Shown here: positions 11,474 through 55,434 of the stretch, piece by piece
Numbering within the stretch: position 1 is the stretch's first letter
How the letters are laid out: the number at the start of each line of letters is the position of its first letter
NCBI GenBank assembly: GCA_035537875.1
Contig: DATLLJ010000035.1
Location: forward strand, 29,358-93,357
Direction of reading: 5' to 3'
Origin: Vicinamibacterales bacterium
Lineage (GTDB): Bacteria; Acidobacteriota; Vicinamibacteria; Vicinamibacterales; CAVVIG01
DNA: 64,000 nt
Program-made: the position numbers and the translations under genes
Notes under the pieces: generated by a model
Seen by the model: the letters and a program-made list of their open reading frames with translations, nothing else
Told to the model about the DNA's origin: nothing
The model's database searches: none

Positions 11474-12085
11474 ATGAAGAGTTCCGTCCGCACTCTGCTC
11501 GTCTTCGGCATGCTCGTGACAATCGTGCCTGCCGTCACGCATGCTCATTTCAGGCTGCTCGAACCTGCGTCATGGTTGATCGAAAACGAGCGTGGCGATC
11601 CGCAGAAAGCGGGTCCCTGCGGTGGCAGCAACACCGATTGGGGAAAACCAAGCTACATCGTCACGAAAGCCATGGGCGGGTCGAAGCTGCATCTCAAGGT
11701 CCAGGAGACGGTCTTCCACCCGGGGCATTATCGCGTGTCGCTGGCGGTGAACTCGCCCACCGAACTGCCGCCTGATCCCGAAACGCAGACCAAGCCGAGC
11801 GACCGCGGCCCCTGGTCGGTCACCGCCACAGTCCAGAACCCGCTGGCCATTCCGGTGCTGGCGGACGGGTTGTTCGTTCATACGGCTAGAGTGGATACGC
11901 CGTTTGAAACGGACGTGCAGCTCCCCAATATCAATTGCAAGAAGTGCACGCTTCAGGTCGTGCAGTGGATGGCCGAGCACGCCTTCAACAACCCCGGGGG
12001 CTACTCGTACCATCACTGCGCCGATCTGCAGATCACGGCAGACCCCTCGAAGCCGATCGACAAAGGTTGGCCTGCTGAACGTTAA
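11474..12085 (+). CDS. Secreted LPMO-like (histidine-brace candidate) protein
   Basis: Signal peptide MKSSVRTLLVFGMLVTIVPAVTHA followed by HFRLLEP, so the mature N-terminus would be His. Also an internal HPGHY and conserved Cys (PCGG, CKKC, HHCAD). Confidence 0.65.
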   Translation: MKSSVRTLLVFGMLVTIVPAVTHAHFRLLEPASWLIENERGDPQKAGPCGGSNTDWGKPSYIVTKAMGGSKLHLKVQETVFHPGHYRVSLAVNSPTELPPDPETQTKPSDRGPWSVTATVQNPLAIPVLADGLFVHTARVDTPFETDVQLPNINCKKCTLQVVQWMAEHAFNNPGGYSYHHCADLQITADPSKPIDKGWPAER

Positions 12086-12282: not shown

Positions 12283-13299
12283 TCAGTGCGAATAGATGGT
12301 GTGATAGTTCTTGCGGAAGCCCGTTCGGCGATTCATCAGCTCGAAGCGTCCATCTGCTTCGGCGGTCAATTTGATCCAATACGCGGTCTCGCCCTCGTCG
12401 ACGTTCGCGATGAAGTCGTCAGCGGCGTTCTTCGCATCTGGATGATGCGAGGCGTGCAGCTGCCACAGGTCCATGTCCGGTCGAGATCCCAGCGTACGGA
12501 GCGAATCCGGTGCGCCCCCCTTGACCGCGCTGTTGTTCAGGATCGCGACCTGGGGCTGAAGTGCCGTGAGCATGGCGGGCACGTTGGAGTCGTAGTTCCC
12601 GTGGTGCGCGACGAGATACGCCGACACCCGGCCGAGCAGGTTCGTCGGGCACACGAGCTTGCCGAGCGTGTTGCCGCTCAAATCCCCCAGCGCGACAAAA
12701 CGGAATGCCCCCATCTGAAGCCGAAGGCCGATCGATCGGACATTCTCGGTGCCATCCTCGACGTGGTTCTCGAGCGTGGCGCACCCGGCGTTGCTTTGTC
12801 CTCCCCCAGCTAGTGGCTGCGACACCAGCTCACCGGAAACGCTGACGACCTCGACGTCGAGCCCGGCGAGCGCCAGGCGATCGCCCGGACGCGGGACCAG
12901 ATGTTTCCGATCGGCCCGGACCGGCTCGTAGGCGCGAAATCCATTGACGGCCATTCGGTCGGTGCCGAGTGGCTCGCCGTAGTCGATGAAGGTGCCGATC
13001 GGAATTCGCGCGGCAAGCTCCGGCACGCCGCCCACGTGATCGTTGTGAAAATGCGTAATGACGAGATAGTCGATGCGATCGATGCCGGCGTCCGCAATTG
13101 CGGCGAGAATTCTATCCGGATCCCGCGAGCCCCGATTTCCCCCGTATCCTGCGTCTATCAGCAAAGACTCGCCCGCCGGCGTCACGATGAGCGTGGCCTG
13201 CCCCCCTTCCACGTCGATGAAGTAGATCTGCAGATCTCTGGCGGAAGTGGGATTCGCCACCAGCACAAGCAGCGAAACGAGTAGAACGAGGCGCGGCAT
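12283..13299 (-). CDS. Secreted MBL-fold metallo-hydrolase
   Basis: Signal peptide. ITHFHNDHVGG (HxHxDH), LVAHHGN. Confidence 0.85.
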   Translation of the reverse strand: MPRLVLLVSLLVLVANPTSARDLQIYFIDVEGGQATLIVTPAGESLLIDAGYGGNRGSRDPDRILAAIADAGIDRIDYLVITHFHNDHVGGVPELAARIPIGTFIDYGEPLGTDRMAVNGFRAYEPVRADRKHLVPRPGDRLALAGLDVEVVSVSGELVSQPLAGGGQSNAGCATLENHVEDGTENVRSIGLRLQMGAFRFVALGDLSGNTLGKLVCPTNLLGRVSAYLVAHHGNYDSNVPAMLTALQPQVAILNNSAVKGGAPDSLRTLGSRPDMDLWQLHASHHPDAKNAADDFIANVDEGETAYWIKLTAEADGRFELMNRRTGFRKNYHTIYSH

Positions 13300-13374
13300 C
13301 CGACCTGAGGTGTCTCACGAGACGATACACCAGCCGCGCCGGAAAGACGACGAGGAAGTTGCGTTCCTAGTTCA

Positions 13375-13875
13375 TTAGCATGCACCGACCACCTGCTTGA
13401 TCGCGGTCACGGTCAGCTGCTCGACTTTCTTCTCGGGATTGCCCGCGGTTTCCACTTGCGGCTTTGGCTCGCCGTCGGCCCGCGGGGGCTCGTGCGTCGG
13501 CGCAGCAGCCGCGGCCGGCCTGGCCGTGATTTCCACCTTGTGACCGACGAAGGGCTTCATGTCGAGCGGCGCCACGCTGGCGCGGTCCAGCCGTTTTTCA
13601 GCCTTGAGCTCGTATTCCGTTTCCGCCTGAACGGCGGCGCCCGCGGCAGACGCGGCTGCGGCGGCGCCGGACGGAGTCGCCGTCACGGCCGGAATGACCG
13701 CTGCGTTCGTCAATTTGAACGTCGCTTCGTCGGGACCGGCGACCAGGCAACCGGTGATCAGCTTGGTGTCGTGCGCCGACTCAGGCGCAACAGGAGTCGT
13801 TCGATCGCCCTCCTGCGCCAACGGAGTTGCACATATCAGCCAGCTCACTGCCAGCGTCCACCCTATCGTCCTCAT
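13375..13875 (-). CDS. Hypothetical secreted Ala-rich protein
   Basis: Signal peptide MRTIGWTLAVSWLICATPLAQ. No recognisable domain. Same strand as the cytochrome genes and downstream of them. Confidence 0.5.
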   Translation of the reverse strand: MRTIGWTLAVSWLICATPLAQEGDRTTPVAPESAHDTKLITGCLVAGPDEATFKLTNAAVIPAVTATPSGAAAAASAAGAAVQAETEYELKAEKRLDRASVAPLDMKPFVGHKVEITARPAAAAAPTHEPPRADGEPKPQVETAGNPEKKVEQLTVTAIKQVVGAC

Positions 13876-14010
13876 GACTGCCTCCGCTGCAGCTCACAAC
13901 GAGCCGCCAGCAAACGCGATGCAATATGGCCGCCGACACGCGGATTATGGAAGGGGTGGCTCCGGGACAGACTGGGCGGTTACCCCGACTGCCCGTGCGG
14001 CAACCGCACG

Positions 14011-14553
14011 TCAGTGAGGGGGAAAGTTCGTTGCGAGATACTTGAGGATGATCGGGATCTGATCGTCGGTCAGCGGCGCGCCCTCGCCGATCATCGCGTT
14101 GAGCAGTTCGAACCAGTCTTCGACCGAACCACCATGGGTCCTCACCCGCTGCAGGTCGTGACACATGGTGCAGATGGTCAGCACGATCGCCTTGCCCTCG
14201 CCGTCGGGAAGGGGGCCGTGGAACCGCACGAGATAGTCGGTCAACACCGGCACGTCGCTCGGATCGACCTTCGCGCCCTTCTCGAGCATCGTCGCGATCG
14301 TTTTCGACCATGCCGCCTCGTCCATCGCGGCGGTCTGGATCGGGCGAATCGTGTGACAGCCGACCGCGCTGCAGCTGGCATTCATCACACGCTCGCCACG
14401 CTGGTAGCGCTCGAACAGCAACTGCTGCTCGGATTTCTGCGGCGCCGCGGCAGGGGTCCCGGCAGGCTGTTGTCCACTGACGACGATCGTCAGCGCTACC
14501 GCCCACGCCGATACCAATCCCAGGACCCGTCGAGTGGAGGGTTTCATCGACAC
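14011..14553 (-). CDS. Secreted c-type cytochrome-like protein (one CxxCH, one CX4CH)
   Basis: Signal peptide. CTMCH is canonical. CSAVGCH (CX4CH) was verified on the nucleotide sequence at about 14350-14372. The gene starts 12 nt after the upstream stop. Confidence 0.65.
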   Translation of the reverse strand: MSMKPSTRRVLGLVSAWAVALTIVVSGQQPAGTPAAAPQKSEQQLLFERYQRGERVMNASCSAVGCHTIRPIQTAAMDEAAWSKTIATMLEKGAKVDPSDVPVLTDYLVRFHGPLPDGEGKAIVLTICTMCHDLQRVRTHGGSVEDWFELLNAMIGEGAPLTDDQIPIILKYLATNFPPH

Positions 14554-14565
14554 GGAAGCTCCAGC

Positions 14566-15381
14566 TTATTTTTGCGGCGGCTCGCCGAGAGTCACCGTCT
14601 TGAGGGTCGCTGCGTCTGTCGCCAGCTCGGTGGCGCCGGCCGGATACTGGTTCGAGCTGAGAATGAAGGCGACGACGTCGGCCGTCTGCTGCGGCATCAG
14701 CGAACCGGGCGCGGTGAGCGGCATCGTTGTCTGGACGAGCTCGAGGAGCTCGCCCACCGATTTGGTCTTCCAGTTGGTCGCGAATTCTTTCCCGGCCAGC
14801 GGCGGGCCGACGCCGCCGGTCAATTTCGGATCGTGGCAGGCCGCGCAGTTGTCCGTATAGACGCTTTCACCGCGTTTCGCCTGTGCAGCCGCATAGAGAC
14901 CGGCGCCTGCCGCAGGCGCGGCGCCAGGGCTGGCGGATCCGGTGGTGACGGCGCCGGGCTCGGCCATCTTCACTGCCTTGAGTGCGGCGAGATCCGAGGG
15001 GAGCGGCGTGCTGCCTGACGGATATTTGTTGAAGCTCAGGATGAAGGACAAGACGTCTGCCGCTTGCTCCGGAGTGAGCGTCCCGGGAGAAGTCAGCGGC
15101 ATCGTCGTCTTGATGCGATCGAACAAATCTCCGACCGTCATCTCCTTCCATGCGGTGATGAATTCCATGCCGGCGAGCGCGGGACCGACGCCGCCTGTCA
15201 ACATGGGGTCGTGACAGGCCGCACAATTGTCGGTGTACACCATCTCGCCACGCTTCGCCTGTTCGGCGGCAAAGACACCGTCGTTCACGGAACGGGCCTG
15301 TTGCGCGCGCACAACCGAAGCCGAAAAGGCAGCGGCAATCGCCATTCCAATGAACGTCGCAATGAGCGCCTTGTGCCTCAT
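14566..15381 (-). CDS. Secreted di-haem c-type cytochrome (internal duplication)
   Basis: Two near-identical modules, each with AEQAKRGE.VYTDNCAACHDP.LTGGVGP.LAG and a distal TTMPL methionine. Confidence 0.85.
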   Translation of the reverse strand: MRHKALIATFIGMAIAAAFSASVVRAQQARSVNDGVFAAEQAKRGEMVYTDNCAACHDPMLTGGVGPALAGMEFITAWKEMTVGDLFDRIKTTMPLTSPGTLTPEQAADVLSFILSFNKYPSGSTPLPSDLAALKAVKMAEPGAVTTGSASPGAAPAAGAGLYAAAQAKRGESVYTDNCAACHDPKLTGGVGPPLAGKEFATNWKTKSVGELLELVQTTMPLTAPGSLMPQQTADVVAFILSSNQYPAGATELATDAATLKTVTLGEPPQK

Positions 15382-15825: not shown

Positions 15826-18159
15826 GTGCGGGCAGGTACCCCCTGGGTCGCGGTCGCGACCGTATTCACGATGCTTGCCTCGCTGGCATCCGACTCGGCC
15901 GCAGCCCAGGACGAGGGCGCTCGTCCCGCTCCTGCTCCAGGCGTCACGAATCCTATAAGCCTCGAAGGTGTACAAGGCGGCCCGGTCGGCCCGGCGCCTC
16001 GCGACGGCGCTCGCCCTGCACGGCCGGCGCTCACACCCGTCCGCGCCCAGCAGGCGCCGTCGATTGACGGACGACTCGACGACGCCATCTGGCGAAGCGC
16101 GGCGCTCATCGACACCTTCGTTCAGGAAGAACCCATCGAAGGCGCGCCGGCGTCGGAGCAAACCGAGGTCCGCGTCGCGTACGACAGCGAGCGGCTGTAC
16201 ATCGGCATTGCAGCGCACTATGCCGACGTCAACCTGAGACGAGCGAACCGCTCCGATCGTGACCGGACCGACGAGGACGATACGGTGACGGTCTTCCTGG
16301 AGCCGTTCCTCGATTACATCCGCGGCTATTCGTTCTCGGTCAATGGTTACGGCGTGCAACGCGATTCGATGATCGTCGTGCAGAACGCGCAAAGTGACGC
16401 CGGCGGAAACACTTCCTTCAACGCCCTCTACTATTCAGGCGGCCAGCTCGTGGAAGACGGATGGACCGCCGAAATGGCCATCCCGTTCAAGAGTCTCAGG
16501 TACCCGGGCCGTGGCGCCGGGGAGGTCCATCGTTGGGGATTTCAGGTGAGGCGCACGATTCGGAGCAAGGACGAAAGCGCCGTCTGGTCCCCCGTCTCGC
16601 GCGCCGATCCGAACTTCCTCGGGCAGATCGGTCTGCTCACAGGGATGACCGATTTCTCGACCGAGCGGAACCTGGAACTCCTCCCGACCTTCACCGCCAT
16701 CCAGACGGGGACGCTCAACGCAACAACTGGAGAGTTCACGATCGACGATGTCGAAGAAGGTGGAGTGGATCTGAAGTACGGGATCAACTCGAACGTCACG
16801 TTCGACTTCACGTACAACCCCGATTTCTCGCAGATCGAATCCGACAACCAACAGATCGAGGTCAACCGGCGCTTTCCAATCAATTTCCCGGAGTTGCGGC
16901 CCTTCTTCCTCGAGGGCCGGGAAATCTACGAGATCCCTGGAGGATTCAGACCGGTCCAGACCCGGCGGATTGTCGACCCGCGCTACGCGGCGAAGCTCAC
17001 CGGAAAAATCAGCGCCCGCACGTCGCTCGGCCTCTTCTTTGCCGATGACGAAGCCCCTGGAAAAGTCGAGAGCTCGATCGATCCGGCCTACGGCCAGAAG
17101 GCGCAGAACGTGCTGGCGCGCGTGAAGTACGACCTCTATCGGAACGCACATGTCGGCGGGATCTTCACCGACCGAGAGTTCCTCGATGGTTACAGCCGGC
17201 TCGTGGGTTTCGATACCGCTCTGCCGATCGGTGTCAGCAAGAACTTCGGCCTCCGCTTTTACAAGAGCGAATCGCTGGCCAATAACGCCCGGGTCGGCGG
17301 ATGGGCGACGGAAAACACCTTCAGGCACAACGGCCGGAACCTGGGCTGGAGTCTCATTCACAACGCCATTTCGCCTCAGTTTGGCAGTCAATTGAGCTTC
17401 ATCGAGCGGACCGATCAGATACAGTCGATGCCGTCGATCAGCTATCGCTGGTATCCCGAGACATGGATCCGCAACTGGGGGCCCAACTTCGGCAACCCGC
17501 GTCTGTGGGACTTCAACGGCGTCCTCCAGAACGAAGACTACACTCCCCGCGTCAGCTTCTCCTTTGCCAAGAACATCACCCTCAATACGGGGTTCACACG
17601 GGCGATGGAGCGGTATCGCGACATCCCGTTCCACAAGAACACCTGGTCGATCTCAAGCAATGTGAACACGAGCCGGAAGATCTCCCTGTCGGCCAGCTTC
17701 GACAAAGGCGACGAGATCCGCTTTACCGTCAACCCGTATCTCGGGCGAAGCCGGGAATACGCCGCCACCGTCACGGCGCGACCGACGTCCCGCTTGCAGT
17801 CGGCGTTCAGAATCACCGCGAGCCGATTCATGGACCCCCGCAGCGGCAGCGATGAATTGGTGTTCAACGTCAAGATCCTGCGCTCGACGACAACCTACCA
17901 GTTCACCCCGCGTCTGCTCATACGGAACATCTGGGAGCTCAACACCGGGCAAGGCTCGAGGCATACGACGTTCGAGAACTTCCTGGTGACCTACCGCGTG
18001 AACAGCGGCACGGTGTTCTACGTGGGATACGACGACCGATTCCGCCAGGAGAGCACGGTCGAGGACCAGGTCATCGTCGACACATCCTATCGGCGTACGA
18101 ATCGGGCGATCTTCACCAAACTCAGCTACCTGTTCAGGCGGGGCGGGGCTGCCGAATAG
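15826..18159 (+). CDS. CBM9-like + DUF5916-type putative outer-membrane barrel protein, paralog 1
   Basis: GTG 15826 after AGGAGG (15814-15819). Signal peptide. APSIDGRLDDAIWRSAALIDTFVQEEP (CBM9/DOMON-like), then a long beta-rich region with NPDFSQIESD..RFP..PELRPFFLEGREIY. Confidence 0.8.
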   Translation: MRAGTPWVAVATVFTMLASLASDSAAAQDEGARPAPAPGVTNPISLEGVQGGPVGPAPRDGARPARPALTPVRAQQAPSIDGRLDDAIWRSAALIDTFVQEEPIEGAPASEQTEVRVAYDSERLYIGIAAHYADVNLRRANRSDRDRTDEDDTVTVFLEPFLDYIRGYSFSVNGYGVQRDSMIVVQNAQSDAGGNTSFNALYYSGGQLVEDGWTAEMAIPFKSLRYPGRGAGEVHRWGFQVRRTIRSKDESAVWSPVSRADPNFLGQIGLLTGMTDFSTERNLELLPTFTAIQTGTLNATTGEFTIDDVEEGGVDLKYGINSNVTFDFTYNPDFSQIESDNQQIEVNRRFPINFPELRPFFLEGREIYEIPGGFRPVQTRRIVDPRYAAKLTGKISARTSLGLFFADDEAPGKVESSIDPAYGQKAQNVLARVKYDLYRNAHVGGIFTDREFLDGYSRLVGFDTALPIGVSKNFGLRFYKSESLANNARVGGWATENTFRHNGRNLGWSLIHNAISPQFGSQLSFIERTDQIQSMPSISYRWYPETWIRNWGPNFGNPRLWDFNGVLQNEDYTPRVSFSFAKNITLNTGFTRAMERYRDIPFHKNTWSISSNVNTSRKISLSASFDKGDEIRFTVNPYLGRSREYAATVTARPTSRLQSAFRITASRFMDPRSGSDELVFNVKILRSTTTYQFTPRLLIRNIWELNTGQGSRHTTFENFLVTYRVNSGTVFYVGYDDRFRQESTVEDQVIVDTSYRRTNRAIFTKLSYLFRRGGAAE

Positions 18160-18307
18160 GCCTGCCGGACCGGCTGGGCCAGCCCCGAAAAACGTGGAGC
18201 AAGCGCCCCGACACTGATGTTAGAATGACCGCTCTGCCGAGCATAGAGCACCGCCCTCGAAGCGGCGAACCGGTCTCCTAGTTTCCATTTCTCCCGAGAA
18301 GAGAAGG

Positions 18308-20668
18308 ATGCTTTTGAACTTGAAGCCTGTGAGGCTCTGTCTTTCGTCGATCGCATTGGTGGCGCTGCTCGGCTCCTCCTCGTCCGCTCAGACACCAGCG
18401 ACGGCCTCGGGCGGCTCTCAACCTCAAGGCGAAGGGACAGGCCGGGGCAATCCGGGAACCCTGACCCTTCAAGGCGGCCAGGCGGGAGAGGTTCAGCAGG
18501 CACCGCGGTCCAGCGCGGCCGGCGGCCGACCGACGCTCACGGCCGTCCGTGCCGAGCAGGCACCGACGATCGACGGACGCCTGGACGATGCCATCTGGCG
18601 CAACGCCGCCCTGATCGACACGTTCGTGCAGGAAGAGCCGCTCGAAGGCGCCCCGGCGACGGAGAGAACCGAAGTGCGGGTCGCGTATGACAGCGATCAG
18701 CTCTATTTCGGCATCAGGGTGTATTACTCCGACATGAGCTTGATGAGGACGAACCGTTCGGACCGCGACAAGCTCGACAACGACGACACGGTCACGGTGT
18801 ACCTGGAGCCGTTTCTCGATTACCTCCGCGGCTACGCGTTCGCGGTGAACGGATATGGCGTGCAGCGCGACTCGATGGTCGTCGTGCAGAATGCGCAAAG
18901 TACCGCGAGCGGTGAGCTCTCGTTCAACGTGCTCTATTACTCGGGCGGACAGCTTGTCGAAGACGGGTGGACGGCGGAAATGGCCATCCCGTTCAAGAGC
19001 CTCCGCTACCCTGGGAAAGGCGCCGGAGAAACCCATCGCTGGGGCTTTCAGGTCCGGCGCGAGATCAAGAGCAAGGACGAAAAGGTCGTCTGGTCGCCGG
19101 TGTCGCGGAACAACTCGAACTTCCTCGGTCAGATCGGGCAGTTGACGGGAATGACCGATCTGTCGGTTCAGCGCAACTTCGAGCTGCTGCCGACGTTCAC
19201 CGCCGTGAATACCGGTGTGCTCAACACGTCAACAGGTGAGTTCGGGACTGACAATGCCACAGACGCCGGGATCGGTGCCAAGTACGGCATCACGTCGAAC
19301 CTGACCTTCGACTTCACTTACAATCCCGACTTCTCGCAGATCGAGTCCGACACCCAGCAGATCGAGATCAACCAGCGCTTCCCGCTCAATTACCCGGAGC
19401 TGCGACCGTTCTTTCTTGAAGGGCGCGAGATCTACGAGATTCCCGGTCGACCGCAGCCGGTGCAGACGCGCAAGATTGTCGACCCCAGGTACGGCGCCAA
19501 GCTGACAGGAAAAGTCGCACAGCGCTGGTCGGTCGGCATGTTCGTCGCCGACGACGAGGCGCCTGGCAAAGTGGACGACATCGCCAGCCCGGCATACGGA
19601 CAACGGGCGCAGAACGTGCTCGGCAGGGTCAAGTACGATTTGTACCGGAACTCGCACGTTGGCGTCATCTTCACCGACCGCGAGTTCCTCAACGACTTCA
19701 GCCGGCTCATCATGACGGACACGGGACTTCGCCTTGGCGAGACCGGGAATTTCGGGTGGCGGTTCTACAAGTCGAGCCAGGAGGAAGCCTCGATCCCGAA
19801 GCAAGGCTGGGCGACGGAAATGAGCATCCGACGGAACAGCCGGAACATCAACTGGGCCGTCATCGCCAATGCGATCTCACCCGAGTTCGGCAACGCGCTC
19901 AGCTTCGTGCAGCGCACCGACCAGATACAAATCATGGCGCCGCAGTTCTCCTACCAGTGGTACCCGGAGGGCTTGATCCGCAACTGGAGCGCCGGCTACA
20001 ACATGCCGCGACTCTACGATTTCGACAGTCACGAGCTGCTCGAGGCCAACTACCAGCCGAACGTGCGCTTCCAGTTCGCGAGGAACGTGCGCGTCGATGC
20101 GAGCGTCCTTCGGCAAATGGAGAGCTATCGTGGCATCGATTTCTGGAAGACGCGGTGGAACCTCTCGGGCAACGTCAATACGAGCCGCAAGATCTTGTTC
20201 TCCTACGGCGTGAGCGACGGAGATCAGATCCGCTTCGTCGCGAACCCCTTCCTGGGCAGGCTGCTCGATTACAACGTGTCGGCGACCTTCCGTCCGACCT
20301 CGCGCCTCGACTCGCGCCTGCAGATCGACGTCAACCGGTTCACCGACCCCGTGGAGCAGCGCCAGGAATTCCACGTGCGGATCCTCCGCTCGTCGACGAC
20401 CTACCAGTTCACGCCGCGGCTGTTGGTGCGCAACATCCTCGAGCTCAACACGGGAGCCGGCTCGAACCACACGCTCTTCGAGAACATCCTTCTGACGTAC
20501 CGCGTGAATTCCGGGACCGTCTTCTACTTCGGCTACGACGATCGCTTCAAGGAAGCCAACGCGATCAACGCCCAGCTGTTCTCGGATCCCGCCTACAAGC
20601 GCACGAATCGAGCCATCTTCACCAAGTTGCAGTACCTGTTCCGCAGCGGGGGCGGCGGCGGGGAGTAA
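18308..20668 (+). CDS. CBM9-like + DUF5916-type barrel protein, paralog 2
   Basis: Collinear with paralog 1 over its full length. Most positions are identical in the N-terminal block. Signal peptide ..LLGSSSSAQ. Confidence 0.8.
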   Translation: MLLNLKPVRLCLSSIALVALLGSSSSAQTPATASGGSQPQGEGTGRGNPGTLTLQGGQAGEVQQAPRSSAAGGRPTLTAVRAEQAPTIDGRLDDAIWRNAALIDTFVQEEPLEGAPATERTEVRVAYDSDQLYFGIRVYYSDMSLMRTNRSDRDKLDNDDTVTVYLEPFLDYLRGYAFAVNGYGVQRDSMVVVQNAQSTASGELSFNVLYYSGGQLVEDGWTAEMAIPFKSLRYPGKGAGETHRWGFQVRREIKSKDEKVVWSPVSRNNSNFLGQIGQLTGMTDLSVQRNFELLPTFTAVNTGVLNTSTGEFGTDNATDAGIGAKYGITSNLTFDFTYNPDFSQIESDTQQIEINQRFPLNYPELRPFFLEGREIYEIPGRPQPVQTRKIVDPRYGAKLTGKVAQRWSVGMFVADDEAPGKVDDIASPAYGQRAQNVLGRVKYDLYRNSHVGVIFTDREFLNDFSRLIMTDTGLRLGETGNFGWRFYKSSQEEASIPKQGWATEMSIRRNSRNINWAVIANAISPEFGNALSFVQRTDQIQIMAPQFSYQWYPEGLIRNWSAGYNMPRLYDFDSHELLEANYQPNVRFQFARNVRVDASVLRQMESYRGIDFWKTRWNLSGNVNTSRKILFSYGVSDGDQIRFVANPFLGRLLDYNVSATFRPTSRLDSRLQIDVNRFTDPVEQRQEFHVRILRSSTTYQFTPRLLVRNILELNTGAGSNHTLFENILLTYRVNSGTVFYFGYDDRFKEANAINAQLFSDPAYKRTNRAIFTKLQYLFRSGGGGGE

Positions 20669-20702
20669 GCATTAGCCCGACCAGGTTCAGGCGGGAGACA
20701 TC

Positions 20703-23003
20703 ATGGGCACAAAGGACGTCATACGCTTTCCCTTTGTGGTCGTCGTGTTGGCCCTGCTCGTGTTGTCGACGTCGACAGCCCTGGCCCAGAACGCGCCGGG
20801 AACGCTCGCCCTTCAGCCCACGCAGGGAGGGACCGAGCCGGCTCGTCCCGCGCCTGGCGCTCGACCAACCGTCACCGCTCTTCTCGCCGAACAGGCCCCC
20901 ACGATCGACGGCAGACTCGACGACGCGATCTGGCGCACGGCGGCGCTGATCGACACCTTTGTGCAGGAGGAACCAATCGAAGGCGCACCTGCCACGGAGC
21001 AGACCGAAGTGCGCGTTGCATTCGATCGCGAGACGCTGTTCTTCGGGATTCAAGTGCACTACTCCGACGTGAACTTGAGACGTGCCAACCGCTCCGATCG
21101 CGACAAGCTCGACAATGACGACACGGTCACAGTCACCCTCGAGCCGTTTCTGGACTATCTGCGCGGCTATTCCTTCTCCGTGAACGGGTACGGGGTGCAG
21201 AGCGATTCCATGATCGTCGTGCAGAACAATCAGAGCAGCGCCGGCGGCAATCTTTCGTTCAATGCGCTGTACTACTCGGGCGGGCAGCTATCTGAGGACG
21301 GATGGACAGCCGAGATCGGGATCCCCATCAAGAGCCTGCGCTATCCGAGCCGCAAAGCGGGCGAGCCGCATCGCTGGGGATTGCAGGTTCGACGCGAGAT
21401 CAAGAGCAGGGACGAATCCGATGTCTGGGCCCCCGTCTCGCGCAACAATCCCAATTACCTGGCTCAGATCGGCGTCCTGACGGGGATGACCGACTTCTCG
21501 ACGCAACGCAACTTCGAGCTGCTTCCGACCCTCACCGCAGTGTCGAGCACGCGGCTCAACCCGACGTCGGGCGAGTTCGTGGACGACACCTCCGGCGAAG
21601 GTGGAGTCGGCTTGAAGTACGGCATCAATTCGAATCTGACGTTCGACTTCACGTACAACCCCGACTTTTCCCAGATTGAATCGGAGACGCAGCAGATCGA
21701 CGTCAATCAGCGTTTCCCGCTGCAGTACCCCGAGCTGCGGCCCTTCTTCCTCGAAGGTCAGGAGATCTTCAACATCGTCGGCATGCCGCGTGCCGTGGAA
21801 ACCCGGAACATCGTTGACCCGCGCATCGGCGCCAAACTGAGCGGCAAGGTGGGCGATCGGTCGTCGATCGGTGTGCTGTTCGCGGACGACGAGGCCCCTG
21901 GCCGCACCGATCTTGAGACCGATCCCGCATTTGGCCGTCGCGCTCGAAGCGTGATCGCTCGGTACAAGTACGACTTGTACCGCAACGCGCACGTCGGCGG
22001 ATTGTTCACCGATCGCGAGTTCCTGAGCAATTACAGTCGGCTCGTCGCCTTCGACACGGCCCTCCCCTTCGCGGGGACCAGAAACATCGGGTACCGCTTC
22101 TTCAAATCCGAGCTCGAAGAGAACAACGCACGCAGGAGCGGCTGGGCCATGGAAGGGACGGTTCGACAGAATGCCCGAAACTTGAGCTGGGGGGCGGTCA
22201 CGACGTGGATGTCGCCGGAGTTCGCCAGTCGGCTCAGCTTCGTCCGCCGGGTGAACACCATCGAGAACCGGTACAACGTCGGCTACAAGTGGTACCCGGA
22301 GAGCTGGATCCGCAATTGGGGTCCTGGCTTCAACGTCGGCTGGCTGCACGACTACGACGGTATCCTCCAGAACCGCACCGACTGGAATCCCAGCGTCAGT
22401 TTCGTCTTCGACAAGAACATCACGCTCAACGCGAACGTCGCGCGCACCATGGAGCTGTATCGCGGCATCGAGTTCGTCAAGACGAACTGGACGGTATCGG
22501 GCAGCGTCAACACCAGCCGCAAAGTCCTCTTCTCGGCGGGCCTCACAAACGGGGACGAAATCCGGTTCATCGCGAACCCGTTTCTCGGCCGGTTGATGGA
22601 TTACAATGTGACCGCGACGTTCCGCCCGTTTTCGCGGTTGCAGTCGATCCTGAGAATGGACGGCAACCGTTTCCGGGATCCAGTCAACCAGGAGCAGGAG
22701 TTCCACGTCCGCATCTGGCGTTCGACGACCACTTACCAGTTCACCTCACGCTTGCTCGTCCGGAATATCTTCGAGTTGAACAGCGGAGAGGGATCGAACC
22801 ACACGTTGTTCGAGAACATCCTGTTGACGTATCGGGTGAACTCGGGCACCGTCTTCTACTTCGGTTACGACGATCGCTTCAAGGAGGGCGGGGCGATCAA
22901 CCCACAGCTGTTCTCCGATCCCACCTACCGCCGAACCAACCGAGCCGTATTTACCAAGCTCCAGTACCTCTTCAGGAGCGGTGGTACCGGCAGCGAGAGT
23001 TAG
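20703..23003 (+). CDS. CBM9-like + DUF5916-type barrel protein, paralog 3
   Basis: Collinear with paralogs 1 and 2. Starts 34 nt after paralog 2. Signal peptide ..STSTALAQ. Confidence 0.8.
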   Translation: MGTKDVIRFPFVVVVLALLVLSTSTALAQNAPGTLALQPTQGGTEPARPAPGARPTVTALLAEQAPTIDGRLDDAIWRTAALIDTFVQEEPIEGAPATEQTEVRVAFDRETLFFGIQVHYSDVNLRRANRSDRDKLDNDDTVTVTLEPFLDYLRGYSFSVNGYGVQSDSMIVVQNNQSSAGGNLSFNALYYSGGQLSEDGWTAEIGIPIKSLRYPSRKAGEPHRWGLQVRREIKSRDESDVWAPVSRNNPNYLAQIGVLTGMTDFSTQRNFELLPTLTAVSSTRLNPTSGEFVDDTSGEGGVGLKYGINSNLTFDFTYNPDFSQIESETQQIDVNQRFPLQYPELRPFFLEGQEIFNIVGMPRAVETRNIVDPRIGAKLSGKVGDRSSIGVLFADDEAPGRTDLETDPAFGRRARSVIARYKYDLYRNAHVGGLFTDREFLSNYSRLVAFDTALPFAGTRNIGYRFFKSELEENNARRSGWAMEGTVRQNARNLSWGAVTTWMSPEFASRLSFVRRVNTIENRYNVGYKWYPESWIRNWGPGFNVGWLHDYDGILQNRTDWNPSVSFVFDKNITLNANVARTMELYRGIEFVKTNWTVSGSVNTSRKVLFSAGLTNGDEIRFIANPFLGRLMDYNVTATFRPFSRLQSILRMDGNRFRDPVNQEQEFHVRIWRSTTTYQFTSRLLVRNIFELNSGEGSNHTLFENILLTYRVNSGTVFYFGYDDRFKEGGAINPQLFSDPTYRRTNRAVFTKLQYLFRSGGTGSES

Positions 23004-23262: not shown

Positions 23263-25827
23263 ATGCTCAGATGGCGCAGAGCCGCCGTGATCGGCGGAAC
23301 GTTCGTGGTGTGTACCACTGCAAGTTCAGTCCAGGCTCAAACGGGTCCACGCATCGCGTGGGACGGTCAGGTCGCGCCGGCGATCAGTGGGTACGCGGTC
23401 ACGATCGATGGCGTTCGCACCAACTACGGGACGAGCCCGGTGATTAATGGCGCCTGCGGATGTTCCATCCCAGCCCCCTTCTCAGGTGGTAGACACACGA
23501 TTGTCGTCATCGCCTACAACTCGAGCGGCGAGACGCCATCGGCGCCGCTCACCGTCGGACCGGTCGCCAACGCTGGTGGACCTTACTCTGGTACGGCCGG
23601 CGCTGCGGTCGCCGTCATCGGCAGCAGCTCGGTGGCGCCCACAGGCAGCCTGACCAACTACACCTGGCGCTGGGGAGACGGAACGGCCGATACGAGCTCG
23701 TCTTCGGCGTCCGCGTCGCACGTGTACGCGGCGAGCGGCACATTTACGGTCACGCTGACGGTGAGAGACAACGCAGGCGCGACGGCGTCGGCCTCAACGA
23801 CCGCGACGATAGCCAGCGCCGCCCAGGCGCCGGCGGCTCTGCCGACGCCCTGGCTCACTCAAGACATCGGAAACGTTGGTCTCGCAGGAAGCGCGTCGTA
23901 TTCGTCCGGCCGATTCACGGTGGCTGGCGCCGGCGTGGACATCTATGGAAACGCAGACGCTTTCCGGTATGTGTACCACCCGCTTGCCGGTGACGGTCAG
24001 ATCGTCGCCCGCGTGGTCAGCACTCAAAACACGCACATCTACGCGAAGGCCGGCGTGATGATCCGGGAGTCGTTGACGCCCGGATCACCGCAAGCGGCCG
24101 TTGTGCTTCTTCCGGATGGCACAATCGAGTTCCTGACGAGATCGGTGGCCAATGGCGCGACCACGATTCCCGGCACGACATCGCAGTCGCCGCCGACGTG
24201 GCTGAAACTCGTGCGCACAGGAAACTCCATCGTCGCGTCGGTATCGGCCGACGGATCCGCATGGTCTGTAGTCGGGACGACGAACGTGACGATGACCGCT
24301 ACCGTCCAGATCGGCCTCGCCGTCACGAGCCATACGACGTCGCAGTTGAACACATCGGTGTTCGACAATGTGAGCGTCACGACCGGCAGCTCGACACAGC
24401 CGCCGGCAACTCCAAGCTCTCCGATGCCGAGCAACGGGGCCACCGGGGTGGCGCTGACATCAAGTCTGACGTGGAGCGCGATTGGCGCGACTTCTTACGA
24501 CGTCCGTTTCGGCACGACCAATCCACCGCCACAGGTAGCCACTGCCCTGGCTTCGCCGTCGTACCGCCCGGCATCGATGAACGGCAATACGAAGTACTAC
24601 TGGCAGGTCGTCGCCCGAAACGCCGGCGGATCCTCCACCGGTCCGGTCTGGTCGTTTACAGCAGCACCTCAATCAACCAGCACAGCCGTGCCGGCTCCGT
24701 GGGCGAATCAGGACATCGGTAGCGTGGGGTTGACCGGCAGCGCGTCATTGTCATCGGGCACCTTCTCCGTGTCGGGAAGCGGCAACGATATCTGGGGCAA
24801 GTCTGACGCCTTCCACTACGTCCACCAGCCACTGACGGGCGACGGTCAGATCGTGGCTCGCGTGACGAGCCTGGAGAATACTCATAGCGCCGCCGCGGCC
24901 GGGATCATGGTTCGAGACACCCTGACGGCCGGATCGCGGCATGTGCTCTTGTCCGTGAGTCCCGGTGGCGACGTCGGACTTCTTCGCCGAGCCAACTCGG
25001 GCGGCACCACGTCGAACGTTGCGAGTGGCTCGCAGTCCACGCCCGCCTGGCTCAAGCTCGTCCGGGTTGGGTCGACCATCACCGGTTACGTTTCCAATAA
25101 CGGTTCGGCGTGGACCCAGGTTGGATCCACGACGCTGACGCTCGGCTCGACACCCTCCATTGGGTTAATCGTCACCAGCCATGACGATACGACGCTGAAC
25201 ACGGCGACCTTCGACTCCGTCAGCGTCACGTACGGCGGATCCGCACCACCCCCGACAACCTCCAGCGGCAACGTCGTCATCTACGCGAGCGATATCCCCG
25301 CATCCGCGCGTCACGGCTCGTGGCAGACCGCCAGCGATCCGCTGTCGCCTGGTCTCGTGAAACTCAGGACTCCTGACAACGGCTTCCAGAGCTCGTCGGC
25401 ACCCTTGGCGGCGCCGACGGATTACGTGGACGTCACGTTCAATGCCGACGCGAACAAGCCTTATCGTCTCTGGCTGCGCCTGCGCGCGTCCGGCAATTCC
25501 GTGTCCAACGATTCCGTATGGGTGCAGTTTTCAGACGCACTGGTCAATGGAAGCCCGATGTTCCGAACGAACACGACGTCGGGCCTGCTCGTCAATCTCG
25601 TGGAAGATGCTTCGACCTTCCCGTTGGACTGGGGCTGGCGGAACACGACTTACTGGCTATCGCAGCCGACGACGTTCACATTCCCCACGAGCGGAATGCA
25701 CACAATCCGGATTCAGGTTCGTGAAGACGGCGTCGAGTTCGATCAGATTGTCCTGAGTCCCACCACGTATCTGAACACGCCGCCTGGGCCGATGACGGGA
25801 GATTCGACAATCGTTCCAAAAGAGTGA
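23263..25827 (+). CDS. Large secreted PKD / FN3-like / duplicated ConA-lectin-like / C-terminal CBM-like protein
   Basis: Signal peptide. PKD-like segment (NYTWRWGDGT..HVYAASGTFTVTLTVRDNAG). Two ~180-aa repeats (PW..QDIG.VGL.GSAS..G.F.V.G.G.DI.G..DAF.YV..PL.GDGQIVARV..). C-terminal beta-sandwich-like domain. Confidence 0.8.
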   Translation: MLRWRRAAVIGGTFVVCTTASSVQAQTGPRIAWDGQVAPAISGYAVTIDGVRTNYGTSPVINGACGCSIPAPFSGGRHTIVVIAYNSSGETPSAPLTVGPVANAGGPYSGTAGAAVAVIGSSSVAPTGSLTNYTWRWGDGTADTSSSSASASHVYAASGTFTVTLTVRDNAGATASASTTATIASAAQAPAALPTPWLTQDIGNVGLAGSASYSSGRFTVAGAGVDIYGNADAFRYVYHPLAGDGQIVARVVSTQNTHIYAKAGVMIRESLTPGSPQAAVVLLPDGTIEFLTRSVANGATTIPGTTSQSPPTWLKLVRTGNSIVASVSADGSAWSVVGTTNVTMTATVQIGLAVTSHTTSQLNTSVFDNVSVTTGSSTQPPATPSSPMPSNGATGVALTSSLTWSAIGATSYDVRFGTTNPPPQVATALASPSYRPASMNGNTKYYWQVVARNAGGSSTGPVWSFTAAPQSTSTAVPAPWANQDIGSVGLTGSASLSSGTFSVSGSGNDIWGKSDAFHYVHQPLTGDGQIVARVTSLENTHSAAAAGIMVRDTLTAGSRHVLLSVSPGGDVGLLRRANSGGTTSNVASGSQSTPAWLKLVRVGSTITGYVSNNGSAWTQVGSTTLTLGSTPSIGLIVTSHDDTTLNTATFDSVSVTYGGSAPPPTTSSGNVVIYASDIPASARHGSWQTASDPLSPGLVKLRTPDNGFQSSSAPLAAPTDYVDVTFNADANKPYRLWLRLRASGNSVSNDSVWVQFSDALVNGSPMFRTNTTSGLLVNLVEDASTFPLDWGWRNTTYWLSQPTTFTFPTSGMHTIRIQVREDGVEFDQIVLSPTTYLNTPPGPMTGDSTIVPKE

Positions 25828-25896: not shown

Positions 25897-28344
25897 ATGA
25901 CGTGGCTCGCTGGCGGCGTCCTGTACTCGGTGGCCTATCTCGTCGCCGGCTCGTACTTGCGCGGAAATGCAACCTCGCTGGTCTGGCTCCGGATCGGCGC
26001 GCTTCTGATCCCTCCGCTCGTCGGCATTGTCATCATCGCCAGACGCCGCCAGGAATGGAGAGGCTGCCAGTGGCTCTTCTGGGCGACCATCGCTCTCGGT
26101 CTCTCGACAACCGCCATCGGCATCGTCGGCTGGACCGTCGACGAAATGCTCCTCGAGCACGAGACGTCGTGGCTCGGTTGGTACACGGTGTTCGCGCTGT
26201 TCGGTTCGATTGCTCCCCTGTTTGCGATGCTGGCTCAGCCCCACCGCGGGACGAGAGAATCGTCGACAGCCAGCACCGCCGTGGATATCGCCGGCATCGC
26301 GGTGATGACCGGGTTCCTGTATTCACACTTCGTGGTCGGCTCGAATCTGTCGCCGCTCACGACCCGGGAACCGTCGCTGCCGCTGGTTCTCCTGCACGAG
26401 CTGCAGCAGCTGCTGGTGTTCGCGGCGCTCGCCGTGGCGGCGCTCGCTTCCAGAGGCTCGACGTGGGCCGCGACCTACCGACGTCTGGCACTCGGCCTGC
26501 TGGTCAGCTTCACCATCCTGACGATTAGCAATCTCGGAATCCTGCAGGGCCTGTACCGGTCCGGCGGCGTCTACGACGTGATCTGGATTCTACCGTTTGC
26601 GTTCTTCGCGTGGGCGGCGGCATCAGCTCCAGGATCGCTCGACGACGAACAGACCGCTGCCAACCATCCGGTGACGCCGTCACGCCCGTGGGTGGTCTTC
26701 GGATCGCTCGCGACGCTGCCGATTCTCGATTTCGGCCTCCGGCAGGTCGTGCCGATCGATCCATCGCTCGAAGGCTTCCGCGACCTGTCGATGGTCATCA
26801 CGATATTCTCCGTCCTGCCGCTGCTGATGGCGCGGCTGGCGGTCGAAAACGCCGACGCCCAGCACGCCGACCGCCGGCGCCTCCTTCTGGCTGCGGCGAC
26901 CGAACAGGCCGGCGATCTCATCTCGATCATGACGCCGTCCGGCGACATCGAATACGCGAACGCCGCGTTCTGCCGCGCGCTCGGCTTCGAGTCCGATGAA
27001 GTGAGTCAGATGACGGCCACTGACTTTCTGTCGAGAGAATCGCACCCGCAGCTCGATGCCATCCGCGCGGAATTGCCAAGGCACGTGTGGCGCGGCACCT
27101 TCGTTCGACGGCGCAAGGACGGCTCGACGTTCCAGTCGGCCACGAGCGTCGTCGCGCTCACGGACGCTGCCGGACAGGTGACCAACTTCGTCGCCGTCGA
27201 GAGGGACACCACGCATGAGGCCCAACTGCGCGACCAGCTGATTCACAGCGAGCGTCTCGCGGCGGTCGGGCAACTCGTCTCCGGCGTCGCGCACGAACTC
27301 AACAACCCGCTGCAGTCGATTGTCGGGTTCACCGATCTGCTCATGGCGTCCGAGCGCCGGCCGGAGGTGCGCAGCGATCTCGAACAGGTCCATGCCGCGG
27401 CCGGCCGCGCCGCCAAGATCGTCCATAACCTGCTCGCCTTCGTTCGCCGCTCGTCGACCGAACGCAGACCGGCAAGTCTCAACGACGTCGTCCAAAGTAC
27501 CGTTTCGTTGCGGAGGTACGAGCTCGTAACGACCGGCCTCGCGGTCGATGAGACGTACGAGGACCATCTTCCGCCAGTGCTGGTCAACCCAGAGGAGATT
27601 CAGCAGATCATCCTCAATATCGTGCTCAACGCCGAGCAGGCGATGCGGACCGCGGCTCGCGGGCGATTGTCCGTACGCACCTTGCGGGCAAGCGCGACCG
27701 AGATCGCCGTCGAGATTTACGACGATGGACCGGGTGTGCCGCAGGCTCTTGCCGGTCGGATCTTCGAGCCATTCTTCTCGACGAAGGACGTCGGTGAAGG
27801 AACTGGCCTCGGACTGTCGCTCGCATTGGGTATTGCCGAGGCCCACGGAGGTGGCCTGACGCTCGTGCCCACGACGTCCGGCGCCTGCTTTCGCTTGACG
27901 TTGCCGATTGCACCGTTGACGGACCAGGCGAAGACGGACGCTTCGTCTCAGGCTCTTGCCGTCGCGGCCGTGAACGGTCGCCGGGCGCTCGTCGTCGATG
28001 ACGAGCCGGCCCTGCGGCGAATGCTTCAACGTTTGCTGACGCGCCGGGGATTCACCGTGGATCTGGCGGAGGATGGCGATCGCGCCTCCAGCCTGCTCGA
28101 GCGTCACCGCTACGACGTGATCTTCTCCGACGTGCAGATGCCGAATATGGGTGGGCTGGCTCTCCTCCAATGGATCCGCCAGCGGCAACCGGCCTCGGCT
28201 TCCGCGTTCGTCTTCGTCATGGGCGGGCTCGTCACGCCTGAGCTTCAATCGGCGATCGAATCTTCCCGCATTCCCGTGCTGTCGAAACCATTTGGCGCCG
28301 CTTCGTTCGACGCGCTGCTCGGGGACCTGTTTTCCGCCGCCTGA
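25897..28344 (+). CDS. Hybrid sensor histidine kinase / response regulator (multi-TM N-terminus, PAS, HisKA, HATPase_c, REC)
   Basis: H-box SGVAHELNNPL, N/G boxes (NAEQAM, DDGPGV, GTGLGLS) and a receiver domain (LVVDDEP..DVIFSDVQMPNMGG..SKPF). Confidence 0.9.
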   Translation: MTWLAGGVLYSVAYLVAGSYLRGNATSLVWLRIGALLIPPLVGIVIIARRRQEWRGCQWLFWATIALGLSTTAIGIVGWTVDEMLLEHETSWLGWYTVFALFGSIAPLFAMLAQPHRGTRESSTASTAVDIAGIAVMTGFLYSHFVVGSNLSPLTTREPSLPLVLLHELQQLLVFAALAVAALASRGSTWAATYRRLALGLLVSFTILTISNLGILQGLYRSGGVYDVIWILPFAFFAWAAASAPGSLDDEQTAANHPVTPSRPWVVFGSLATLPILDFGLRQVVPIDPSLEGFRDLSMVITIFSVLPLLMARLAVENADAQHADRRRLLLAAATEQAGDLISIMTPSGDIEYANAAFCRALGFESDEVSQMTATDFLSRESHPQLDAIRAELPRHVWRGTFVRRRKDGSTFQSATSVVALTDAAGQVTNFVAVERDTTHEAQLRDQLIHSERLAAVGQLVSGVAHELNNPLQSIVGFTDLLMASERRPEVRSDLEQVHAAAGRAAKIVHNLLAFVRRSSTERRPASLNDVVQSTVSLRRYELVTTGLAVDETYEDHLPPVLVNPEEIQQIILNIVLNAEQAMRTAARGRLSVRTLRASATEIAVEIYDDGPGVPQALAGRIFEPFFSTKDVGEGTGLGLSLALGIAEAHGGGLTLVPTTSGACFRLTLPIAPLTDQAKTDASSQALAVAAVNGRRALVVDDEPALRRMLQRLLTRRGFTVDLAEDGDRASSLLERHRYDVIFSDVQMPNMGGLALLQWIRQRQPASASAFVFVMGGLVTPELQSAIESSRIPVLSKPFGAASFDALLGDLFSAA

Positions 28345-37194: not shown

Positions 37195-37199
37195 CGATT

Positions 37200-39670: not shown

Positions 39671-39737
39671 CGCGGCTGCCACGGGAAAGTGTTACGCTCT
39701 TGGCCTTTCTCGCGACACCCAGAGGAGGTTACCAGCC

Positions 39738-55148: not shown

Positions 55149-55434
55149 CGCTCGTGTAGGGCGAGTGCTTGATTCTACCGGGCGTGCGCGATCCGCTGAA
55201 GAAGAAAAACGCGATCGAAACGGTCGGCTTTCGGCCCAGCGGCGCCGCTCACACCGATGAAGTACCGCCCCGCGGCGTCCTGTCAGCGCACGCGGACTCT
55301 GTTGAGCTCGGTACACCCGGTCGGTGACGACACGCGAGGACACCAAAAAGAAAACTGCGCAATCCGACCCCGAGGTGAGGGTAGTATGTGCACGTCTCGT
55401 CCCCGTCACACCGGAACTCGCATGGAGGGTGCAC

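Follow-up and report, generated by a model that had tools for sequence, protein, structure and literature searches.

Background

Several described outer-membrane systems join a large beta-barrel to an N-terminal globular module. TonB-dependent transporters, including SusC, carry a globular domain directly before a barrel of 22 strands and are encoded by multi-copy, clustered genes. LptD has a periplasmic N-terminal beta-sandwich and a very large barrel of 26 strands. OmpA, OmpM/SlpA and PilQ also combine a barrel with a periplasmic module, which in PilQ is AMIN. Here we analyze a stretch of 64,000 nucleotides (nt), hereafter the window, from a Vicinamibacterales bacterium (GenBank assembly GCA_035537875.1, contig DATLLJ010000035.1, positions 29,358 to 93,357). 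It contains a tandem array of three paralogous genes, designated copies A, B and C, and a divergent fourth copy, D. All four encode proteins of the DUF5916 family with a CBM9-like domain directly before a predicted 24-strand barrel.

The CBM9 modules of xylanases, such as TmCBM9-2 (1i82) and the CBM9 of C. kristjanssonii (7nwo), have the same beta-sandwich fold as this domain. There is also a precedent for a CBM9-like module in the periplasm: PghK of Shewanella has a periplasmic DOMON-like CBM9 sensor domain, the hypothesised ligand of which is peptidoglycan glycan fragments (bioRxiv 10.1101/2023.05.05.539549). PghK, however, is a histidine kinase and not an outer-membrane barrel.

DUF5916 is among the larger outer-membrane protein families without an assigned function, and a Vicinamibacterales genome has several copies. 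Vicinamibacterales are abundant in soil and have few cultured members. We found that the triplication is old, that the three paralogs appear to differ in the barrel and not in the CBM9-like domain, and that this domain most likely lies on the periplasmic side. A role as solute channels is our tentative interpretation.

Results

Four members of the DUF5916 family

The window encodes four proteins, which are collinear from end to end in the alignment:

15826-18159, plus strand: copy A, 777 amino acids (aa); signal peptide, Pro/Gly-rich linker, CBM9-fold domain and 24-strand DUF5916 barrel (open reading frame and Pfam)
18308-20668, plus strand: copy B, 786 aa; architecture as in copy A; the copy that was modelled
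20703-23003, plus strand: copy C, 766 aa; architecture as in copies A and B
41163-43343, minus strand: copy D, 726 aa; divergent paralog from a separate widespread subfamily, with no N-terminal linker and with a terminal Phe (YRHRF)

Copies A and B are separated by 148 nt, copies B and C by 34 nt, and copy D lies 18.2 kb from the array. Copy A has a GTG start with GGAGG 8 nt upstream. For copy D the list of open reading frames gives a TTG start at 43640, and the deposited protein begins at the ATG at 43343. Copies A, B and C are 64-67% identical to one another in pairwise amino-acid comparison and 29-30% identical to copy D. The corresponding tblastn scores, about 1000 and about 250-275 bits, are both far above chance; the same search of the window yielded no fifth copy and no fragment. 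At the nucleotide level copies A, B and C are 67-68% identical overall, with values of 0.72-0.80 in 60-codon windows of the conserved N-terminal third. The G+C content is 61-67% throughout the window.

A preliminary description of the locus, made from the letters alone, had listed three plus-strand genes of these lengths and spacings, a divergent copy about 18 kb away on the other strand that ends in YRHRF, and a series of shared identical blocks with DNA identity of around four-fifths. All coordinates and lengths are confirmed, all the quoted blocks are found in the alignment, and the identity judged by eye matches the range of the 60-codon windows.

All four copies exceed the Pfam cut-offs for both domains that had been suggested for them. 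CBM9_1 (PF06452) scores 28.3-35.3 bits (33.5 in copy A; cut-off 23.4) and DUF5916 (PF19313) scores 56.7-65.1 bits (62.4 in copy A; cut-off 22.6). Only positions ~11-86 of the 572 positions of the DUF5916 profile align, i.e., strands 1-3 and loop L2, and not the full length; over the remainder of the barrel the divergence exceeds what the Pfam model can follow, and this part is recognised via fold and homologs only. Signal peptides, judged by eye, are present in all four copies as a hydrophobic core followed by AAQ|D, SAQ|T, LAQ|N or DAQ|A. No NCBIfam model matches any of the four proteins, and a sequence search of the PDB with copy B and with the 46-sequence profile gave nothing meaningful. 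The Pfam scan found no catalytic domain in the copies. The barrel is the sole partner of the CBM9-like domain, which is therefore not a CBM9 in the CAZy sense, i.e., part of a carbohydrate-active enzyme (CAZyme).

A profile search of 1.84 billion representatives returned 32,383 proteins at E<=1e-3 and 5,880 at E<=1e-30, so that the family amounts to about 32,000 clusters of 50% identity at the former threshold. The searchable literature contains no paper mentioning DUF5916 or PF19313 and no description of a function, in agreement with the preliminary description, which knew of no experimentally defined one. Copy A is identical in sequence to the deposited protein P0031. Copy B is 100% identical to P0001, [quoted passage not shown] (the full record name is prefixed "MAG TPA:"), and copy D is 100% identical to P0278, deposited under the same DUF5916 name. 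The family and the exact sequences of copies A, B and D are thus already public. The copies are intact members of a known, uncharacterised family, and their tandem paralogy is ordinary.

The triplication is old and the paralogs differ in the barrel

Among the 120 best homologs of copy B we distinguished three orthogroups. Members of the B-type, C-type and A-type groups are 72-77%, 77-82% and 75-80% identical, respectively, to their own copy, and identity across the types is 62-69%. Each copy has its own orthologs that are closer to it than its paralogs are; therefore, the triplication predates the split of several lineages. Judged from these sequences, it is ancient and maintained and is not a recent amplification. 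Three near relatives (L002-L004) keep the array order A-B-C.

Selection was assessed with the Nei-Gojobori method as the ratio of nonsynonymous to synonymous substitution rates (dN/dS, omega). Between copies A, B and C overall dS is 1.3-1.5, and omega is 0.19-0.23, which indicates purifying selection on all three; dS is near saturation at 1.2-1.5 and approaches 2 when domains are compared singly. The linker has the highest omega (about 0.48), the barrel is intermediate (0.23-0.25) and the CBM9-like domain has the lowest (0.07-0.12). Alignment and dN/dS thus give no sign of relaxed selection, and the copies in the window are intact, in keeping with the earlier suggestion of an old duplication with maintained copies.

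We then compared the three orthogroups, using 8, 8 and 14 members, and found 38 sites that are fixed within the groups and differ between them. Twenty-four of these are in strands (mostly strands 8-14), seven in loop L2 and a single one in the N-terminal domain, which has 216 positions. This distribution, together with the low omega, makes different glycan specificities of the module unlikely. The paralogs thus appear to share one function of the N-terminal domain and to differ in the barrel.

The similarity of the paralogs is mosaic. Copies A and C are closest at codons ~560-640 (0.69 versus 0.59-0.65), and copies B and C are closest in the last ~100 codons (0.69-0.80 versus 0.67), which suggests old recombination or gene conversion between copies. 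In the near relatives, one to three frameshifts interrupt the B-type copy of L003 (7673-9969) and of L004 (12537-14671) and two copies of L002 (5264-9853), with intact neighbours. These are long-read metagenome-assembled genomes, and the frameshifts may be assembly or sequencing errors or may reflect pseudogenisation.

Predicted structure of copy B

An AlphaFold2 (AF2) model of copy B was built on a 46-sequence alignment, and strands were assigned with DSSP. The mean predicted local distance difference test score (pLDDT) is 79.7, and the predicted template modelling score (pTM) is 0.74. The chain consists of a signal-peptide helix, disordered residues 19-72, a beta-sandwich at residues ~75-290 and 24 strands at residues 291-775. 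The parts map to the window as follows:

18392-18529, plus strand: disordered Pro/Gly/Ala-rich linker, copy B aa 29-74 (pLDDT <50)
18530-19177, plus strand: CBM9-fold beta-sandwich, copy B aa 75-290 (Pfam, domain model); most conserved part of the paralogs
19178-20632, plus strand: 24-strand beta-barrel, copy B aa 291-775 (DSSP of the AF2 model)
19322-19489, plus strand: loop L2, copy B aa 339-394, NPDFSQIESDTQQIEINQRFPLNYPELRPFFLEG...; 56-aa family-signature loop on the extracellular side, after strand 3

The proteins have the predicted features of outer-membrane beta-barrels: a signal peptide, an even strand number, alternating long loops and a last strand that ends in ..KLQYLF(R), or in ..YRHRF in copy D. 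A signal peptide, a CBM9/DOMON-like module and a large barrel had already been proposed for each copy; Pfam, AlphaFold and Foldseek bear this out, and the modelled barrel is of the membrane type. Loop L2 is the most conserved element of the barrel: nowhere in the 46-sequence alignment do invariant residues lie more densely. It has low pLDDT and probably folds into the barrel lumen.

All Foldseek matches of the model in the PDB are large outer-membrane barrels of a generic kind, such as TonB-dependent transporters, LptD and MtrB, with the first two among the top matches. The probability is 1.0 and template modelling scores (TM) are at most 0.45; therefore, there is no close solved relative. The N-terminal domain modelled alone (pLDDT 76.7, pTM 0.80) is closest to the CBM9 structures 7nwo, 7nwn and 1i82 (TM 0.57-0.69). 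A Bacteroides putative carbohydrate-binding protein follows, and then the haem DOMON-like subunits of ethylbenzene dehydrogenase (EBDH-gamma) and nitrite oxidoreductase (NxrC). In sequence the match to the xylanase CBM9 modules is a weak profile match (E=5.6e-4) with 16-18% identity. Unlike those modules, the domain of the copies is accompanied by no glycoside hydrolase and is predicted to be periplasmic or lumenal. Sugar binding by it is putative.

Haem binding was considered for the same domain. In the 46-sequence alignment it has no invariant or nearly invariant His, Met or Cys, which makes a cytochrome-type DOMON unlikely; a nearly invariant Lys is present without a conserved Met partner. 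We rejected the identity with haem-binding DOMON or cytochrome b domains, since there are no conserved axial ligands and the CBM9 structures match better.

The linker is 45-55 aa long in copies A-C. It contains a short alternating motif (TLTLQG, TLALQP or ISLEGV), which in copy B is TLTLQG at aa 51-56 (18458-18475 of the window) and has equivalents in copies A and C. Conservation of the motif extends over the A/B/C clade and some relatives; copy D and members with a short N-terminus lack it. It could be a TonB-box-like strand-augmentation element or could be incidental; unlike a TonB box, the TLxLQG motif is clade-specific and not family-wide. We rejected membership of the copies among the TonB-dependent transporters or SusC proteins. 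Pfam gives no match to the Plug (PF07715) or to the TonB_dep_Rec barrel (PF00593) at E<=0.01, the barrel has 24 strands and not 22, and the linker motif is only clade-specific. Membership in the LptD family was rejected as well, with no LptD/OstA match in Pfam and TM of ~0.3.

The CBM9-like domain most likely faces the periplasm

In the AF2 model, loops of 56, 17, 15 and 13 residues are found by DSSP at strand junctions 3/4, 5/6, 11/12 and 23/24. The junctions on the side of the termini have 2-5 residues, and all long loops are opposite both termini. The strand number is even, and both termini are therefore predicted to be periplasmic. The CBM9-like domain is joined to strand 1 by about 8 residues. 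The pTM is 0.74 despite disorder in 13% of the chain, which speaks for a docked position of the domain, on or in the barrel.

Homologs with additional modules are informative about the same question. Sixteen of the best 150 homologs have an N-terminal extension of at least about 190 residues. The extension contains AMIN in five of them, as in PilQ, TolB_N/FlgO in five, T2SS-T3SS_pil_N (secretin-N) in one, a cytoplasmic kinase domain in one and nothing recognisable in four. The kinase-domain extension is probably a gene-call fusion. Three of the proteins (P0122, P0158 and P0215) are each one polypeptide with a single N-terminal signal peptide, the module, a low-complexity linker and the CBM9-like domain. 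AMIN, TolB_N/FlgO and secretin-N are all periplasmic module types. Together with the even-stranded barrel, they place the CBM9-like domain most likely at the periplasmic mouth or in the lumen of the barrel, and not on the cell surface.

Neighbourhoods in related genomes

A scan of GTDB genomes yielded 78 loci, almost all from Vicinamibacterales; neighbour counts refer to 79 loci after removal of duplicates. At least two DUF5916 copies occur within 10 kb in 21 of the 79 loci, and seven loci, spread over at least three sub-clades, have three or four. Tandem expansion is recurrent: at least three clades acquired arrays independently, a pattern usual in channel and porin families.

When neighbouring open reading frames were clustered, the commonest group was a GSDH-like beta-propeller of the pyrroloquinoline quinone (PQQ) type (PF07995/DUF7133), which was present at 20-21 loci. 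Other frequent neighbours are PQQ dehydrogenase propellers, leuA-like and leuB-like housekeeping genes and glyoxalase-fold proteins. The density of GSDH-like genes is about 15-fold higher at less than 1 kb (13 per 145 kb) than at 5-10 kb (3 per 515 kb). The GSDH-like/DUF7133 gene often starts 4 nt past the DUF5916 stop on the same strand (L028, L054, L061, L079 and others); elsewhere it is divergent. The adjacency is seen in at least three sub-clades and in several arrangements. The GSDH-like protein of L061 (3221-4381), the only one inspected, has a signal peptide. No partner conserved across loci was found in L002-L004 and the 79 loci.

One distant family member lies near a PQQ dehydrogenase. 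In L083 (1297-12867), another distant DUF5916 member directly follows GH63-like, GDE and GH15 genes on the same strand, and a convergent DUF5916 gene of 886 aa comes next.

Orthologs of copy D are 60-72% identical to it, those from Terriglobia included, and are stand-alone genes in other genomes. In the window a one-carbon cluster abuts copy D (37191-41132, plus strand): a MetE-like Meth_synt_2 protein, MTHFR with DUF5981 and a GCV_T-like aminomethyltransferase. A Meth_synt_2 gene (L085, 13360-14391) is also found about 4 kb from the Terriglobia ortholog of copy D; this may be remnant synteny.

Surroundings of the array in the window

The array is flanked by the following genes:

12283-15381, minus strand: divergent left flank, with a metallo-beta-lactamase (MBL)-fold protein (12283-13299), a secreted 166-aa protein (13375-13875) and a periplasmic di-haem cytochrome c (14566-15381) (Pfam, translations)
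23263-25827, plus strand: PKD + DUF1349 (concanavalin-like) protein, directly downstream of the array
25897-28344, plus strand: PAS-containing hybrid histidine kinase/response regulator, downstream of the array

The trio of cytochrome c, 166-aa protein and MBL-fold protein adjoins the arrays of L002-L004 and is not beside the DUF5916 genes in most other Vicinamibacterales loci. A general functional link to it was rejected, because it is kept in the three near relatives only. On the right, flanks differ, and neither the PKD/DUF1349 protein nor the hybrid kinase is kept beside the arrays of relatives. A functional link to the PKD/DUF1349 protein was likewise rejected, because the three closest relatives lack it beside their arrays. 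Among the neighbours of the array there is no SusD-like partner and no glycoside hydrolase.

A riboswitch or structured leader upstream of the array was ruled out: Rfam gave no match at E<=1, and folding of the region had a z-score of +0.89. A promoter scan found no promoter-like site, and terminator-like sites were at the level of shuffled sequence.

Further to the left, a 203-aa protein (11474-12085, plus strand) matches the NCBIfam model "SCE4755 family polysaccharide monooxygenase-like protein" with 119.5 bits (cut-off 75). It also has a weak Pfam match to the BIM1-like copper acquisition factor and occurs in the flank of L003-L005. A secreted-type MBL-fold protein (8177-9202, plus strand) gives a faint PQQ-related hint: it scores 80 bits with "quinoprotein relay system zinc metallohydrolase 2", which is below the cut-off of 280. 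An open reading frame of 520 aa with a TTG start (13456-15018, plus strand) has no Pfam or NCBIfam match, overlaps the genes for cytochrome c and the 166-aa protein on the opposite strand and is probably a spurious high-GC frame. Two genes typical of Acidobacteriota are located at the right: a Ser/Thr kinase with PD40 repeats (52509-55619, minus strand) and an Oar-like outer-membrane protein (55324-58722, plus strand) with CarboxypepD_reg and a barrel of 838 positions (OMP_b-brl_4/TonB-dependent).

Discussion

Our tentative reading, to which we give somewhat less than an even chance, is that the copies are plugged or gated 24-strand solute channels with specificity in the barrel wall and in loop L2. 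Such substrate-selective outer-membrane channels would let hydrophilic solutes pass, with sugars or their derivatives as plausible candidates. On the periplasmic side, the conserved CBM9-like module would serve all paralogs as a gate or receptor. Selectivity would be set by loop L2 and the barrel wall (strands 8-14), which differ by paralog type, and the three copies would be subfunctionalised paralogs. In sister clades the channel would supply substrates to a secreted PQQ-type, sugar-dehydrogenase-like propeller for periplasmic oxidation; the direct coupling of the channel gene to a secreted GSDH-like gene suggests such a delivery.

A number of observations speak against solute channels. The array in the window has no GSDH, PQQ or CAZyme neighbour, and the window contains no GSDH/PQQ dehydrogenase gene; the neighbour signal comes from sister clades, and its density figures are uncorrected for shared ancestry. 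The CBM9-like domain may be a plug, a sub-barrel cap or a free periplasmic domain. Most extracellular loops of the model are very short. The homologs with AMIN fit peptidoglycan anchoring at least as well as transport. As to sugar recognition, the reducing-end sugar is bound in TmCBM9-2 by the stacking tryptophans Trp71 and Trp175. In the weak profile alignment (E=5.6e-4) the first of them (in NPWEQD) aligns to Asp in RDKLDNDD, and the second falls outside the aligned range. Finally, the searchable literature holds no experimental localisation or transport data for any member of the family.

A more far-reaching version of the channel reading is a long shot. Here DUF5916 proteins would represent a previously unrecognised class of plugged outer-membrane transporters, in which a CBM9/DOMON-fold domain replaces the plug of TonB-dependent transporters and which feeds sugars or related solutes to secreted PQQ-type dehydrogenases. 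The TLxLQG motif of the A/B/C clade would couple the gate to a periplasmic partner in the fashion of a TonB box.

The proteins could instead tether the outer membrane to peptidoglycan or serve as structural proteins, in the manner of OmpA or OmpM: the CBM9-like module would bind glycan strands, the barrel would be an anchor, and the paralogs would be abundance or condition-specific variants. We consider this unlikely. The periplasmic N-terminus and the presence of AMIN, a known peptidoglycan-binding module, in 5 of the 16 extended homologs agree with it, as do the mostly stand-alone genes, usual for structural outer-membrane proteins, and the very strong conservation of the N-terminal domain, expected with an invariant ligand. 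PghK, whose periplasmic CBM9-like sensor is proposed to recognise peptidoglycan glycan fragments (bioRxiv 10.1101/2023.05.05.539549), is a precedent. Unlike OmpA and OmpM/SlpA, however, the copies lack OmpA_C and SLH domains. Docking on the barrel, and not a reach to the cell wall, is suggested by the high pTM and by the short connection of about 8 residues, and 24 strands with a highly conserved internal loop far exceed what an anchor needs. Moreover, the addition of AMIN modules suggests that the core protein itself does not bind peptidoglycan, and the 4-nt coupling to GSDH-like genes is left unexplained.

An export or secretion conduit of the LptD or secretin kind, with the periplasmic beta-sandwich taking a glycolipid or polysaccharide and passing it through the barrel, seems to us rather improbable. 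The combination of an N-terminal beta-sandwich with a large barrel does resemble LptD, which is among the top Foldseek matches; AMIN and secretin-N modules are typical of PilQ-type exporters, and a carbohydrate-binding fold in the periplasm fits the handling of polymers. Nevertheless, TM to LptD is only ~0.3, the copies have neither an LptD/OstA match nor an LptE-like neighbour, and no polysaccharide-synthesis or export genes recur beside family members in the 79 loci. Several diverged paralogs per genome would also be unusual for a dedicated exporter.

The preliminary description had favoured a functional analogue of SusC/D arrays, in which CBM9 modules at the surface capture different glycans, the barrel imports them, and each paralog has its own specificity. 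We now find this very improbable. A true CBM9 fold, maintained paralogs, the lectin-like PKD/DUF1349 neighbour in the window and the glycoside hydrolase genes beside a distant member are in its favour. But the topology and the periplasmic N-terminal modules of homologs put the domain on the inner side, and the single group-specific site of 38 in the CBM9-like domain, with its omega of 0.07-0.12, leaves little room for module specificities. The first stacking Trp is not conserved in the (weak) alignment, and extracellular loops are short. The analogy to SusC/D finds no support, with neither an adjacent SusD-like partner nor a TonB-dependent plug domain, and the lectin/PKD neighbour, which had been taken as a functional pointer, is missing from the arrays of the three closest relatives. 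A role in carbohydrate-related uptake may still hold, in a geometry other than the one proposed; a surface position of the module and differing module specificities are unlikely.

A redox role, with the N-terminal domain as a haem-binding DOMON-type cytochrome and the barrel as an MtrB-like electron or redox conduit that works with the neighbouring di-haem cytochrome c, is hardly credible: that cytochrome is conserved in divergent orientation beside the arrays of near relatives, EBDH-gamma, NxrC and MtrB are among the structural matches and PQQ dehydrogenases are associated with the family, but the domain has no invariant His, Met, Cys or Lys pair, CBM9 structures fit it better than haem DOMONs, and the cytochrome neighbour is confined to one small clade.

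Conclusions

The analysis narrows the question of what DUF5916 proteins do. The CBM9-like module is probably periplasmic or lumenal, the differences between paralogs are in the barrel wall and loop L2, and sister clades repeatedly pair the gene with one for a secreted PQQ-type dehydrogenase-like protein. If the plugged-transporter class were real, it would be a major nutrient-uptake route in soil Acidobacteriota. Whether the proteins are uptake channels, cell-wall tethers or exporters matters beyond this locus, as the answer would inform models of carbon acquisition in Vicinamibacterales.

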